This document shows positions 2,853 through 7,660 of a stretch of DNA of 29,565 nt, piece after piece. Positions within the stretch are counted from its first letter, which is position 1. Each line of letters starts with the position of its first letter. The stretch lies in the UHGV virus genome UHGV-0175179; one strand, 5' to 3'. This stretch comes from a virus. The notes under the pieces were generated by a model. That model saw only the letters and a program-made list of their open reading frames with translations. It was not told where the DNA came from and searched no databases. The translations under genes and the position numbers were made by a program.

Positions 2853-3836
2853 ATGATTCGATCTCTCGTTAAATGGCCCGGTGGTAAAGGCCGCGTTATG
2901 CCTGATTTGCTGCCGATTCTGCCGAAAGCCGATTGCCTGGTGGAACCGTTTGTCGGCGGTGCTTCTGTTTTCCTCAATACTGAATATCGCCGTTATATCC
3001 TGGGTGATATAAACCCAGATTTAATTAACCTGTATCGCCAGATAGCCCGCTGGCCTGATGTGGTGATCGACGCTGCTCGCCCGCTGTTTAAAGTGTACGG
3101 TGATAAAGACGGCTATAAGTGGATCCGCGACGATTTCAACGCTCGCGCCCATGACCTTCTTTCATCGCGCAATGTGTTTGAGGACGGACCGGACGCGGGC
3201 AAGATTCTTCGTGCAGCACAGTTTCTTTACCTGAACCGTCACGGATATAACGGCGTAGTGCGCTACAACCAACAGGGCGGATATAACGTTCCCTTTGGTA
3301 GACACAAAACCCCGCCTTACTTCCCGGAAGAACAGATCCGTTTATTCTCTGAAAAAGCTAACGACACGAAAGCTATTTTCGTGTGCTGCGATTTCCAGAG
3401 CACGTTAAAAATCACGATTGGTAGTGACGCGGTTATCTACTGCGATCCGCCATACCTGCCAACAAGCGAAACCGCTAATTTCACCCAATACCACACCGCC
3501 CCGTTTGGGATTAAAGAGCATCGCCAGTTAGCTGCCGCCCTGCTGGATATTAACCGCCTTACTGGTTCGCCGGTGATCCTGTCCAACAGCGACACCCCTG
3601 CTACCCGCGAGATTTATCACACTTTCAACTTCCAGGAAATCAGCGTTAACCGTTCTGTCAGCGCGAACGCCATTACCAGAGGGGTCGCCAGTGAAGTGAT
3701 TGGCGTCCTGAAAGTGTGCAGCGGCTGCGGTCGTGCCGATGGTGGCCGTTGTCCTGACTGCGGCCCGGTAATGGGTGACGCGACCTACAACGAAATGCTG
3801 GCATCGGCTGCGGCCAATGGCGTGGAGGCTTTTTAA
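2853..3836 (+). CDS. dam: DNA adenine methyltransferase, Dam family, with a C-terminal Cys4 zinc-ribbon extension
   Basis: KWPGGK and LVEPFVGGASVFLNTEYRRYILGDINPDLINLY are near-identical in pattern to E. coli Dam (KWAGGK, LVEPFVGAGSVFLNTDF..YILADINSDLISLY). DPPY catalytic motif present (IYCDPPYLPT). The C-terminal ~45 aa add CSGCGRADGGRCPDCG. GGAGA RBS 8 nt upstream. Confidence 0.9.
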   Translation: MIRSLVKWPGGKGRVMPDLLPILPKADCLVEPFVGGASVFLNTEYRRYILGDINPDLINLYRQIARWPDVVIDAARPLFKVYGDKDGYKWIRDDFNARAHDLLSSRNVFEDGPDAGKILRAAQFLYLNRHGYNGVVRYNQQGGYNVPFGRHKTPPYFPEEQIRLFSEKANDTKAIFVCCDFQSTLKITIGSDAVIYCDPPYLPTSETANFTQYHTAPFGIKEHRQLAAALLDINRLTGSPVILSNSDTPATREIYHTFNFQEISVNRSVSANAITRGVASEVIGVLKVCSGCGRADGGRCPDCGPVMGDATYNEMLASAAANGVEAF

Positions 3837-4036
3837 TGGCAACCCGTATCGATGCAACTCAATCCGAATTTACCCGCGGTGCGCTGGCTGCGCTTAACGA
3901 AGCTAAAACCATTGCGCTTGCCCATGCGACGTTAGCGGGCGTTCTGGCTGGGCCTGACGTGGCTAATACATTGCTGATTTCTTTCAATACGTTATTAGAC
4001 CCGCTAATCGAAAAGCATTCACAACGGGAGGGTTAA
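3836..4036 (+). CDS. Hypothetical small protein (66 aa), translationally coupled between the two methyltransferase genes
   Basis: ATG overlaps the dam stop (TAATG). Ala/Leu-rich, no motif recognised. Confidence 0.4.
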   Translation: MATRIDATQSEFTRGALAALNEAKTIALAHATLAGVLAGPDVANTLLISFNTLLDPLIEKHSQREG

Positions 4037-4038
4037 TC

Positions 4039-5049
4039 GTGGGTGCTTTGGCTTACTACAACGAAATCGATCCATATGCAGCACAGTGGCTGCGCAACCT
4101 CATTGATGCCGGGCATATTGCGCCAGGCATTGTTGATACCCGTTCAATTGAGGATGTAACCCCCAATGACCTTAAAGGCTTTACTCAATGTCACTTCTTT
4201 GCCGGGATCGGTGTGTGGTCATATGCCCTGCGTCTTGTGGGCTGGCCGGACGACAAACCGATCTGGACTGGATCCTGCCCATGCCAGCCTTTCAGCCCGG
4301 CAGGCAAAGCAACTGGGTTTGATGACGAGCGGCACTTATGGCCCGCCTTTCATTGGCTCATTGCTCAGTGCCGCCCTGTCGTTGTCGCTGGCGAGCAATC
4401 TGGAAGCGCTAACGCGAACGTCTGGCTCGACCTTGTACAAACTGACATGGAAAGCCTGGGCTATGCCTTCGGGGCGGTCGCGTTTCCGTCTGCGAGCGTC
4501 GGTGCGCCACACATCCGGGACAGAGCTTACTGGGTGGCCGACACCAACGGCGAGCGCATGGAAACACCCTGGAAATCAGGGGAGGCAGGGAGGCTTGAAT
4601 TTGCAAACGGCCACAGCATTAGCTGGGTGGCCGACACCAACAACACAGAGCAACAACCAAATCTCAGGAGTTGGAGCGGCTGCAGATCACCCGAAGCGCG
4701 GGACAACTTTGGGCGGGGCTGCTCAGCTGTCGGGGTGGCCGACACCAGCTTCAAGGGACGGCAAGGGGGGGTATCAGGGCGGGAGGATGCGCAACGGGAA
4801 GCTGTCGACGGACACGCTGGATGTGACGGCGCAAATTGCGGGACCGGTCCGGTTAACGGTTTCTGGCGATCTGCTGACTGGCTGTATTGCCGGGATGGAA
4901 ACTGGAGGCCAGTTAAACCCGGACTTAAGCCGCTGGTTGATGGGGTTACCGGACGAGTGGGAAAAATCCGCGCCTACGGAAACGCTATCAACGTTGAAGC
5001 TGCAACAGCGTTCATAAAGGCTTATATGATGGGGGCGTCAAATGTCTGA
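4039..5049 (+). CDS. DNA cytosine-5 methyltransferase, phage orphan Dcm-like (GTG start); reading frame integrity uncertain
   Basis: Motif I-like FAGIGVW, motif IV PCQPFSPAG, motif VIII-like APHIRDRAYWVA and motif X-like RAYGNAINVEAATAFIKAY in this frame. GGGAGG 7 nt upstream of the GTG. The stop overlaps the gpA start. Confidence 0.8.
   Translation: MGALAYYNEIDPYAAQWLRNLIDAGHIAPGIVDTRSIEDVTPNDLKGFTQCHFFAGIGVWSYALRLVGWPDDKPIWTGSCPCQPFSPAGKATGFDDERHLWPAFHWLIAQCRPVVVAGEQSGSANANVWLDLVQTDMESLGYAFGAVAFPSASVGAPHIRDRAYWVADTNGERMETPWKSGEAGRLEFANGHSISWVADTNNTEQQPNLRSWSGCRSPEARDNFGRGCSAVGVADTSFKGRQGGVSGREDAQREAVDGHAGCDGANCGTGPVNGFWRSADWLYCRDGNWRPVKPGLKPLVDGVTGRVGKIRAYGNAINVEAATAFIKAYMMGASNV
4531..4749 (+). 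repeat. Three direct copies of a ~15-bp motif GGGTGGCCGACACCA inside the Dcm-like gene
   Basis: Copies at 4531-4548, 4623-4641 and 4732-4749, read directly from the sequence. They encode WVADTN / WVADTN / GVADTS in the gene frame and GWPTP three times in the overlapping frame. Confidence 0.8.
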
Positions 5050-7660
5050 CACCGCCTTTGCATGGCCCTGGAACGCGCCGCGCCAAGCTGTTGGCCTGTA
5101 CACCTACGAACCGAAAAAGATCGCCCCGCTTGCCGGGGCGGTGGCGCATCATCCTGCCGTAAAAAAACACATCGATCACATCTTCAAACGCGCCGGTTAC
5201 AACCCCGACGACGTTCGAGACCGTGACGCGCTGATCCAGTCGCTGGACAGGTACGAACCGTGCGGCCTGCCACTGGCCGCCCAACAAAATATCATCCGGC
5301 AGGAAAGTGCAGCCGCCAAAGCTGCGGCGGCTGCCTGGGCCAATACGCCGGAAGGTGTCGAAGCGCGTTTGTTGTCTGAGCCGTTCTTCATCCGCGAAGT
5401 CTGGCGCAAAAAAATTGAATGGTTACGGGCCAACCGTGAAACCAGACACACCAATGATTTTCTTATGGGGACCGTGAAAAAATCATTGCTGCGTCTCGAT
5501 GTTGTGCGCACAAGGCAAGGTGTTTCGCCTGATATCACCGGCGAACTGGCCGCGTACTGGTTCGGGCGCTGGCAACGACTGGCTGATTTCACAAAGCGGG
5601 AAGCACTAAGCGCCGCTAATGAGATCGCCAGCCGCATGACTGAAATGCTGGGGACGGAATGCGAAGCCCTGGGACGGAATGTTTCCGACATGAACGTCGA
5701 AGAACTGGACTGGCTTTATTGCCACATGGGCCGCGAAATGCTGGCGCTTCGTATTGTGCCGCCTGCATGGTATGCGCCGTGGGAACGCGAGCGCATATGC
5801 ACGGCCATTTTGCGTATGGCTTCGCCTGACTGGTGGGGGCGCAAAATCTGGCGCCTGCGTTGTGACTGGCGCGAAAACCAGCTGCGTGCTGTTGGCGCGG
5901 TAAATAAAAAAGCGCATCCGTATATTAGCGCATCAAGCCTGATGGAATGGCAGGAACAGCGACGTAAAAACCGTAATTTCTTCAAAAGTCATGAACTGGT
6001 AGACGAAGACGGCAACGTTTCGTCGCTTGAGGACATGATTAACAAATCCACGTCTAACCCTGCAATTCGTCGTCATGAGCTTATGGCCCGTATGGCTGGT
6101 GTGGAGCTTGTCGCCCAGAGCCGTGGCGATGTTGGCATCTTCCTGACCATCACTTGCCCGTCGAAATATCACGGCAATATTGCGTCCGGCCACCATAACG
6201 CAAAATGGAACTACGACACGGTTGCACAGGCGCAACGCTATTTATGCCGCGTATGGAACCGGGCAACCGCCAAACTGAAACGCGAAGATTTGCGCCCTTA
6301 TGGCTTCCGCGTCGCCGAGCCGCATCACGATGGGACGCCACACTGGCACGCGTTGTTATTTATGCCAAAAGAGCAAGTCAAAGCCACGGTTGCGATACTT
6401 CGCGCCTACTTCATTGCGGAAGACCGCGACGAGCTGGGCCGCAACACCGGTGCTCGCTTCAAGTCCAAAAAAATGGACCCACGGAAAGGGTCAGCAACGG
6501 CATACATCGCCAAATACATTTCGAAGAATATCGACGGTCACGCGCTGGCCGGTGAACTGGACGACGAAAGCGGCAAGCCGCTGAATGAAACAGCCAAATA
6601 TGCAATGGCCTGGGCGTCACTTCACCGCATCCGCCAGTTTCAGCCCATCGGACAGCCGCCCATATCGGTTTACCGCGAGCTGCGCAAACTGAGCAATCAG
6701 ATCACGACCCGCCAGAAAATTGACAATACCTTCAAGCGCGGTGCGCCGTTGCTTGTGGATCCTGCAATGGATGCGGTTTGCGCCGCTGCCGATGTCGGGT
6801 GCTTTGCTACCTACATCATCCGCCAGGGTGGTGTTTTGATCCCGCGTGAAAACTATGTCGTCCGTCTGGCCTATCAGCCAGCTGATGAAATGAATGCTTA
6901 TTGTGAGATCCCCGAAAAGGTTTTCGGGGTCTGGTCGCCGCGTCTGGGTGATGCCTCCCGTATTTGCACCCGTCTGGTTAAGTGGAAAATCCGCGCCAAA
7001 TCCAAAGCTACCACCGAGGCCAAAAACGGCCCCGGTTTGGGGGGTGACCTTTTGCCGTCGCCAACCGGCGACGCTTGGAGTTCTGTCAATAACTCTACGG
7101 AAGCCGAAAAAATCACCGATTTTTCGCCTGATGTGGAGGGGATGACAGAAGAATCAGAAGAGGAAATCGTCGATTTTGAAAACATGGACCAACCGACGCG
7201 GCGCAAATTGATGCGGCGACTACGTGAAACACCATTCAAAAGGCAGCAAAACGGATCACCTTATGAGCCAGGCAGCGAATTAGATGTCGCCTGGCGTTCT
7301 GCCGTGGAAAAAACCGAGGCCAGATCGGCGGCAGAAAAGGCCAGACGGGGGGCGCTTGCTCCTGCGGTTGCCAGCCTGCTAGCAGATGCGGCGTTGTATT
7401 CGGTTGAGATTTCAGAGATTCAGGCCGTTTCGCTGTTAATGGGGAGTTGTCTGGAAATTGGCGGCAAAGTTTATCGGGCCAGTGCTGACGGCCAGTTGAT
7501 AACGCGTCAATTACCCGACGAGTCACGGACGGTGAATAAATTATGGGAACGTCTGCGGGATAACCACGGCATAGATGCCACGCGCCTGCGGTTCGATCCT
7601 GCGGGTGAATACGCAAAGATGTTAACGAAAGCAATTAATTGCGCTGACAAAAAGGGGTGA
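5042..7660 (+). CDS. A: Replication initiation endonuclease, P2 gpA family (HUH rolling-circle initiator)
   Basis: HUH motif HWHALLF and active-site tyrosine motif SATAYIAKYISKNIDG, typical of P2 A-type initiators. 872 aa. Position after the early genes matches P2. Confidence 0.9.
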   Translation: MSDTAFAWPWNAPRQAVGLYTYEPKKIAPLAGAVAHHPAVKKHIDHIFKRAGYNPDDVRDRDALIQSLDRYEPCGLPLAAQQNIIRQESAAAKAAAAAWANTPEGVEARLLSEPFFIREVWRKKIEWLRANRETRHTNDFLMGTVKKSLLRLDVVRTRQGVSPDITGELAAYWFGRWQRLADFTKREALSAANEIASRMTEMLGTECEALGRNVSDMNVEELDWLYCHMGREMLALRIVPPAWYAPWERERICTAILRMASPDWWGRKIWRLRCDWRENQLRAVGAVNKKAHPYISASSLMEWQEQRRKNRNFFKSHELVDEDGNVSSLEDMINKSTSNPAIRRHELMARMAGVELVAQSRGDVGIFLTITCPSKYHGNIASGHHNAKWNYDTVAQAQRYLCRVWNRATAKLKREDLRPYGFRVAEPHHDGTPHWHALLFMPKEQVKATVAILRAYFIAEDRDELGRNTGARFKSKKMDPRKGSATAYIAKYISKNIDGHALAGELDDESGKPLNETAKYAMAWASLHRIRQFQPIGQPPISVYRELRKLSNQITTRQKIDNTFKRGAPLLVDPAMDAVCAAADVGCFATYIIRQGGVLIPRENYVVRLAYQPADEMNAYCEIPEKVFGVWSPRLGDASRICTRLVKWKIRAKSKATTEAKNGPGLGGDLLPSPTGDAWSSVNNSTEAEKITDFSPDVEGMTEESEEEIVDFENMDQPTRRKLMRRLRETPFKRQQNGSPYEPGSELDVAWRSAVEKTEARSAAEKARRGALAPAVASLLADAALYSVEISEIQAVSLLMGSCLEIGGKVYRASADGQLITRQLPDESRTVNKLWERLRDNHGIDATRLRFDPAGEYAKMLTKAINCADKKG

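Follow-up and report, generated by a model that had tools for sequence, protein, structure and literature searches.

Why does a gene that reads as a C5 cytosine methyltransferase carry the same short sequence three times in its variable region? The gene in question, which we call alpha, lies at 4039-5049 on the + strand of the UHGV virus genome UHGV-0175179 (29,565 nt; this whole stretch is referred to below as the window), starts with GTG, encodes 336 amino acids (aa) with methyltransferase motifs I-VIII plus motif X, and has homologues that databases name 'DNA cytosine methyltransferase'. An exact search of the window found the 15-mer GGGTGGCCGACACCA three times and solely on the + strand (4532-4546, 4625-4639 and 4733-4747), successive copies starting 93 and 108 nt apart. 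These copies fall within a second, hidden gene, beta, an unannotated open reading frame (ORF) of 283 codons that was recovered from the ORF list and lies in the +1 frame wholly within alpha (4166-5017, + strand). The best explanation, and in our judgement a probable one, is that alpha and beta make up a nested methyltransferase and that the repeats are the heads of exchangeable cassettes on beta.

The three-copy repeat is real and far beyond chance, the expectation for exact 15-mer matches being ~5e-5 (simple arithmetic for 29.6 kb, both strands); when up to three mismatches were tolerated, the shuffled sequences yielded 0.96 matches each on average. The identity of copies 1 and 2 extends over 19 nt, CTGGGTGGCCGACACCAAC. 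A preliminary description of the locus had reported three direct repeats of ~15 bp, spaced by 93 and 108 bp and placed inside the variable region of the methyltransferase locus, and both the repeats and their placement were borne out, its intervals being one to three flanking bases wider than the exact copies. It had further read the repeats as encoding a WVADT-like peptide, and the literal translation of the alpha frame at the three copies is indeed YWVADT, SWVADT and GVADT. In the +1 frame, each of the 15-mers is in register and reads GGG-TGG-CCG-ACA-CCA, that is, G-W-P-T-P.

To determine which of these peptides is under selection, we scored differences from the window by codon phase, using relatives that had been picked by DNA similarity only. 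Across 4039-4278, differences fell mostly at alpha codon position 3 (0.42-0.61 vs 0.02-0.19 elsewhere), indicating selection on alpha only. All three positions were low across 4279-4518, with 4399-4458 in beta phase, marking a first dual-coding stretch that encodes alpha motifs IV-VIII together with ASLSARQAK...GSTLYKLTWKAWAMPSGRSRFRLRASVRHTS of beta. Across 4519-4878, which holds the repeats, differences fell mostly at beta position 3 (0.3-0.55) and were fewest at beta position 2, equivalent to position 3 of alpha (0.05-0.25), indicating selection on beta only; expressed in the alpha frame, the differences at the repeats lie mainly at codon position 1 (0.3-0.55) and least at position 3 (0.05-0.25). 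All three positions were low again across 4879-4998, a second dual-coding stretch. The selected frame thus switches from alpha to beta exactly at the repeats, a result with which a cassette-by-cassette phase analysis agreed, and because the substitution phase at the repeats follows the beta frame, it is GWPTP and not WVADT that is the selected peptide.

Both frames are kept open far beyond this genome. We compared 160 related loci from enterobacteria, Pseudomonas, Burkholderiales, alpha-proteobacteria, Acidobacteria, Planctomycetes and viral contigs, and in nearly all of them alpha was open for ~300-400 codons with GNA[IV] near its end, the third frame was short, and the +1 frame was open for ~230-380 codons, with W-x-T-P heads and W[LM]MG.P, beginning 60-130 nt past the alpha start and stopping 5-95 nt ahead of the alpha stop. 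The longest +1 open stretch averaged 299 codons, vs 134 in codon shuffles (157 loci), and the third frame behaved as expected by chance (67 codons observed vs 78 in shuffles). When the alpha protein was held fixed and its synonymous codons were shuffled, the stretch from the beta start to the first WPTP should have contained ~2.2 stops in the +1 frame, yet 150 loci had none. Conversely, fixing the beta protein led to an expectation of 3.35 alpha-frame stops per gene in the cassette region, and none occurred in 102 unique genes, the third frame of the same region having 4.8 stops observed vs 4.35 expected. Beta is therefore a second protein-coding gene in the +1 frame, and both frames have been kept open across a very large family of phages and prophages.

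These data bear directly on the reading in which a WVADT-like peptide is simply repeated in the target-recognition region of a single-chain methyltransferase encoded in the annotated frame only. That frame is open throughout, reads YWVADT, SWVADT and GVADT at the copies, and is the only one that databases annotate; yet the substitutions are in beta phase, amino-acid divergence is 0.5-0.7 in alpha vs 0.16-0.36 in beta, and the +1 frame is open in ~150 loci. Moreover, in alpha the heads translate to a degenerate set of peptides (WVANA, GLAHP, GLADA, RMANT and others), while beta reads GWPTP in 204 of ~330 heads, and the alpha region is predicted to be disordered, so that we find this reading hardly credible. 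Nor was the earlier suggestion that the repeats might reflect a repeated structural unit upheld in the annotated frame, as AlphaFold (AF2) assigned alpha residues 171-283 a predicted local distance difference test (pLDDT) score below 30 and no secondary structure. These residues (4549-4887, + strand) are open and not conserved, and appear to form a disordered spacer.

Having placed the repeats in beta, we turn to the units that they delimit. Each 15-mer encodes the G-W-P-T-P at the head of one cassette on the + strand: repeat 1 (4532-4546) heads cassette A (4532-4624, 31 aa, GWPTPTASAWKHPGNQGRQGGLNLQTATALA), repeat 2 (4625-4639) heads cassette B (4625-4732, 36 aa, GWPTPTTQSNNQISGVGAAADHPKRGTTLGGAAQLS) and repeat 3 (4733-4747) heads cassette C (4733-4840, 36 aa, GWPTPASRDGKGGYQGGRMRNGKLSTDTLDVTAQIA). 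Diversity at beta codon positions 1/2/3 was 0.32/0.22/0.61 in cassette A, 0.22/0.12/0.58 in B and 0.17/0.06/0.43 in C. We then delimited 1171 cassettes in 418 unique beta proteins, finding 0-8 per protein (mode 3), a head consensus of G-W-P-T-P-x-A-x-D and a head-to-head spacing of mostly 26-47 aa, with peaks at 31-32, 36 and 39 aa. The variable parts fell into ~232 clusters at 45% identity and the arrays into 232 architectures, the same type occurring at differing array positions. In this catalogue the window has the architecture type 0, type 5, type 2 (cassettes A, B and C, respectively); type 0 was found 137 times, and type 2 is the commonest type and mostly the last in its array.

Cassette number and type differ between alleles, and one near-identical allele is without one cassette. 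In a contig from a Logan assembly (L164), the gene shows ~99% identity to the window, but 108 bp are missing, exactly 4625-4732, a segment that begins with repeat 2 and ends at the base preceding repeat 3, so that cassette B has no counterpart in it; because precisely the segment between two repeats is absent, cassette number appears to vary by recombination or slippage at the repeats. The proposal that recombination could expand or contract the array was thus supported by this allele, and the number of heads, ranging from 0 to 8 across homologues, was not invariant. A mosaic was found in Citrobacter sp. FP75 (L004, 1501-2442), with 92% identity to the window over 4039-4531 and 86-93% over 4733-5049 and a first cassette that differs from, and is unrelated to, that of the window.

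Two other accounts of the repeats were considered and set aside. Simple-sequence contingency (phase-variable) repeats do not describe them, the copies being 93 and 108 nt apart rather than in tandem, and the indels comprising whole cassettes in multiples of 3. Identical 15-mers are also not a trait of the family, as synonymous sites of the heads vary and at least three identical heads occur only in the window (1 of 18 genes). Because exact head identity is peculiar to the window allele, the identical nucleotides in all three of its heads suggest recent recombination or gene conversion at the heads.

What, then, do the two genes encode? The catalytic motifs of a C5 methyltransferase were found on alpha alone (FFAGIG, PCQPFS, GEQ and PHIRDR), with motif I (FFAGIG) at 4195-4212, motif IV (PCQ) at 4279-4287, motif VI (GEQ) at 4390-4398 and motif VIII (PHIRDR) at 4507-4524, all on the + strand by translation; repeat 1 also encodes alpha W165-T169 at the tail of motif VIII, where W165 and A167 are invariant (alignment A2). 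Alpha matched phrog_363 (E 2e-88), and matched Pfam PF00145 over aa 75-179 only (47.8 bits, cut-off 22), and the alpha profile aligned with M.HhaI 72-173 in HMMER. Its AF2 model was confident over residues 1-170 (pLDDT mostly ~80-94, with low-confidence loops at 84-92 and 152-159) and matched the catalytic domain of M.HhaI, M.HaeIII and DNMT2 over ~170-195 columns; by both profile and model, solved C5 methyltransferases were matched in the catalytic domain only. Motif X (YGNAI, with GNA at 4978-4986 and G314, N315 and A316 invariant in alignment A2) and a confidently predicted C-terminal helix (aa 319-334, pLDDT ~88) follow at 4978-5040 on the + strand. Between motifs VIII and X, neither an ordered target-recognition domain nor motif IX was found on alpha in the AF2 model, the translation or the selection phase.

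The N-terminal part of alpha was also observed to be peculiar in its order, in that YYNEIDPYAAQWL...DVTPNDL at its start (window 4039-4290) resembles motifs II and III yet precedes FFAGIG (motif I) and PCQ (motif IV), and alpha 38-67 was aligned by HMMER to M.HhaI 3-32. Judged from the sequence, this motif order looks unusual for a C5 methyltransferase.

Beta, whose predicted product includes the peptides GTTLGGAAQLSGWPTPASR and LSTDTLDVTAQIAGPVR, matched phrog_1008 (E 6e-33) and phrog_31772 (E 1e-41), both labelled DNA methyltransferase, and gave no family in Pfam or NCBIfam scans. Its homologues numbered 3053 in a set of 5.8 billion proteins, with 9600 clusters at 50% identity, all without Pfam domains. 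Downstream of the cassettes lies a constant core (4841-4966, + strand) that is near-invariant in 130 diverse representatives, and part of this core (4910-4960, + strand) is motif IX-like. Distant phages (Rhodobacter, Vibrio and Kagunavirus) show the same nested layout, and no single-chain or separated arrangement of alpha and beta was found among the examined loci, the long beta proteins P0200 and P0247 being still overlapped by alpha.

This division of parts recalls M.EcoHK31I, a two-polypeptide C5 methyltransferase whose beta subunit is encoded in another frame inside alpha, where motifs I-VIII, motif X and a presumed recognition domain reside on alpha and motif IX on beta, and the enzyme needs both (PMC2836561, PMC3404938). 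We propose that the present alpha would likewise contribute two parts, the large catalytic domain with motifs I-VIII and the helix of motif X, connected by a spacer whose only requirement is to stay open, and that beta, begun at an internal ATG, would provide the small domain, consisting of the variable cassettes and the constant core with its motif IX-like end. The two polypeptides would then assemble into an active enzyme, as in M.EcoHK31I. By analogy with the multispecific enzymes of Bacillus phages, the cassettes are most likely target-recognition units, possibly of one specificity each, while their conserved heads may serve as short homologies at which cassettes are lost, gained and exchanged; such exchange would retune which host restriction systems the phage escapes.

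The same layout could in principle yield one polypeptide through two programmed ribosomal frameshifts, +1 past motif VIII and -1 past motif IX, giving the order I-VIII, target-recognition domain, IX, X. The motifs do stand in canonical linear order across the two frames, and no single-chain relative with GWPTP cassettes was found. However, ~350-400 nt of open +1 frame, with a conserved ATG, precede the supposed shift site, and the alpha frame is open through the entire cassette region even though it is not selected there as protein; since a single frameshifted chain needs no open frames beyond its junctions, and yet both stay open, frameshifting is unlikely. In addition, an X_XXY_YYZ (-1) heptamer lies between motif IX and the beta stop in only 8 of 129 genes, an Rfam scan of the window gave no match, and in one locus (L168) a stop interrupts the +1 frame upstream, which then reopens at an ATG. 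Altogether, we regard a frameshifted chain as quite improbable.

Alternatively, beta could be a genuine overlapping gene with a function unrelated to methylation, such as DNA binding or anti-defence, and alpha a complete enzyme alone. In favor of this, no methyltransferase profile or structure matched beta significantly, AlphaFold did not model beta as a folded domain, an HNH-like insert is present in some beta proteins, and alpha has its own conserved segment ahead of motif X (VNGFW..ADW..CRDGKWRP), possibly a minimal small domain. Set against this are the lack in alpha of motif IX and of any ordered region between motifs VIII and X, the motif IX-like end of beta at the canonical place, the fact that alpha and beta were never apart in ~170 loci, and the precedent of M.EcoHK31I (PMC2836561). 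An unrelated function of beta is unlikely in our view, though less so than frameshifting.

The HNH-like insert was observed in the beta homologues P0247 and P0200 (L168 3001-4449 and L169 3001-4644), where it spans ~170-190 aa before LGSTLYKLTWK; in alpha, the insert falls between motif VI (GEQVA) and motif VIII, and no stop interrupts that frame anywhere along it. The ATG at which beta restarts in L168 lies after alpha motif IV. A predicted protein in the library of protein representatives, P0256 (421 aa), joins the first ~50 alpha residues (MPAYYNEIDPYAAQWLRNL...) to an unrelated stretch and a normal beta, and is probably a frameshifted or rearranged allele or an artefact of gene calling.

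Returning to the proposal of a nested methyltransferase with cassettes on beta, it must also be asked whether the cassettes are separate specificities at all, or rather repeats of one structural unit that form a single DNA-binding surface of variable length. The head G-W-P-T-P-x-A-x-D and a hydrophobic tail are common to all cassettes, and arrays of one or zero cassettes exist, as would suit such a surface. Nonetheless, the variable parts are of ~232 types unrelated to one another, the cassettes are not of uniform length (peaks at 31-32, 36 and 39 aa) and their order is shuffled between alleles, a picture closer to exchangeable specificity cassettes than to a regular repeat of structure. A single surface built of structural repeats is therefore possible but doubtful, and is the alternative that we take most seriously.

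Several points weigh against the nested two-subunit enzyme that we favor. The assignment of motif IX to beta is at the level of pattern, as the sole hhalign alignment with M.HhaI placed the beta core on HhaI 273-294 (KLHPRECARVMGYPDSY), which is motif IX, with a non-significant E of 0.21. A search of solved structures with profiles of the whole of beta (A1) and of its core (A3) returned chance hits only and no methyltransferase, and a hand-made chimera of alpha(1-167), the beta cassettes with motif IX, and alpha (motif X) did not lengthen the PF00145 match. Beta alone was not modelled by AlphaFold (pLDDT 31.7), which gave no fold support for the cassettes, and the first ~38 beta codons show no amino-acid constraint, though the frame stays open. 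In M.EcoHK31I, moreover, the target-recognition domain is assigned to alpha, whereas the variable cassettes here are on beta. Finally, we infer the translation of beta and its association with alpha from the sequence, and it is by analogy that the cassettes would determine sequence specificity.

If translated, beta would presumably start inside alpha, at an ATG close to codon 40. In 141 of 150 loci, the +1 frame has its first ATG 116-152 nt upstream of the CQPFS codon, a span of only 36 nt, and across loci GGAG or AGGAG often stands 8 nt upstream of the first beta ATG. In the window, the probable initiation region (4150-4168, + strand) comprises GAGG at 4150-4153, an ATG-TAA at 4154-4159 and an ATG at 4166-4168; the common ATG (4154) is directly followed by TAA, and the next ATG, at 4166, has GAGG 12 nt upstream. 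This ATG-TAA precedes the beta ATG by 6 nt and may represent a start-stop element or merely a displaced start. The ATG equivalent to 4154 was observed to be the first beta ATG in 60 other loci. M.EcoHK31I tolerates the loss of the first ~41 residues of its beta, for which internal methionines can act as start sites (PMC2836561, PMC3404938).

Both nested ORFs have in fact been annotated before, in the GenBank records of phages K1ind3 (L165 1020-1949), K1H (L166 1101-1925) and PhiXhv-18 (L167 1020-2012). The record of K1ind3 labels them 'putative C-specific methylase' and 'putative Mte8-like protein', those of K1H and PhiXhv-18 list two 'DNA methyltransferase' coding sequences each, and all three state no functional link between the two ORFs. 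A literature search (WPTP, Mte8, overlapping or alternative-frame phage methyltransferases) found no published interpretation of the pair.

As for its surroundings, the locus is, from its gene content, the early or replication operon of a P2-like prophage, in the order Dam-type methyltransferase (2853-3836), a small ORF, alpha and a P2-type replication gene A (5042-7660), which is also the gene order of Salmonella phage SI7 (Peduoviridae). The genes are tightly packed, the small ORF (3836-4036) beginning at the Dam stop, alpha starting 3 nt past the stop of the small ORF, and the start of gene A (5042) overlapping the alpha stop by 8 nt, an arrangement that suggests translational coupling along the operon. 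The upstream Dam-type adenine methyltransferase (D12 class, 2853-3836) was further seen to carry a C-terminal extension with CSGCGRADGGRCPDCG, in which the pattern CxxC...CxxC suggests a zinc ribbon.

Extending the argument from this locus to its relatives, the whole family may consist of obligate two-polypeptide enzymes with combinatorial beta cassettes, each adding one target, and so constitute a hidden, multispecific anti-restriction system that is driven by recombination and overlooked in standard annotation. We hold this broader claim more tentatively than the reading of the window itself, as a serious possibility that falls somewhat short of an expectation. Its scope would cover at least 9600 beta clusters (50% identity) in Proteobacteria, Acidobacteria and Planctomycetes, a same-strand overlap of ~850 nt, and more than 200 cassette types, with up to eight or nine per protein. 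Should the nested layout hold family-wide, thousands of genes named 'DNA cytosine methyltransferase' would be half enzymes whose specificity half is unannotated, and the overlap, if true, would rank with the longest same-strand overlaps of bacterial viruses and with the most widely conserved ones. Its separable single-frame and dual-frame segments would offer a natural test bed for the evolution of overlapping genes; the shuffling, at a conserved 15-nt head, of a repertoire exceeding 200 cassette types would account for the way in which temperate phages adjust their self-methylation to changing host restriction systems; and the cassette library could yield parts for programmable split methyltransferases.

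We finally compared the locus with known systems, by their published descriptions. Besides M.EcoHK31I, M.EaeI is also a two-polypeptide C5 methyltransferase. Reviews name only M.AquI and M.EcoHK31I as exceptions to the monomeric C5 enzymes (PMC3404938). As in M.EcoHK31I, beta is nested wholly in alpha in another frame and both are conserved, the shuffle controls excluding chance, and the subunit sizes are similar as judged from the plasmid names M38 and C23 (PMC2836561). The present locus differs from it in that the variable region of alpha is an unselected spacer, predicted to be disordered; in that it is an orphan within a P2-like prophage, beside a Dam gene and replication gene A, whereas M.EcoHK31I belongs to a restriction-modification pair; and in that its family is very large, with thousands of clusters. 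M.AquI, too, is a C5 methyltransferase in two polypeptides, split in the variable region so that its subunits hold motifs I-VIII and IX-X (PMC3404938); here, by contrast, alpha keeps motif X, and beta lies nested in the other frame.

The closest parallel to the cassettes is found in phage enzymes, in which recognition units of ~40 aa each are known from Bacillus phages. The Bacillus phage C5 methyltransferases carry tandem target-recognition domains and have several specificities (PMC8936443). In anatomy, and in anatomy only, the window matches this multispecific SPR type, with several tandem units in the variable region, and like the enzymes of SPR, phi3T, rho11s and H2, compared here by description only, it is phage-encoded; set beside those units, the present cassettes are individually deletable and shuffled. 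Unlike the Bacillus phage enzymes, which are single polypeptides in a single frame, it bears its cassettes on a separate polypeptide in an overlapping frame. In this last respect the locus resembles the overprinted same-strand genes of viruses, with its overlap of ~850 nt and its alternation of single-frame and dual-frame constraint, but it departs from them in that its two products are probably parts of one enzyme, rather than a new accessory protein laid upon an old one.

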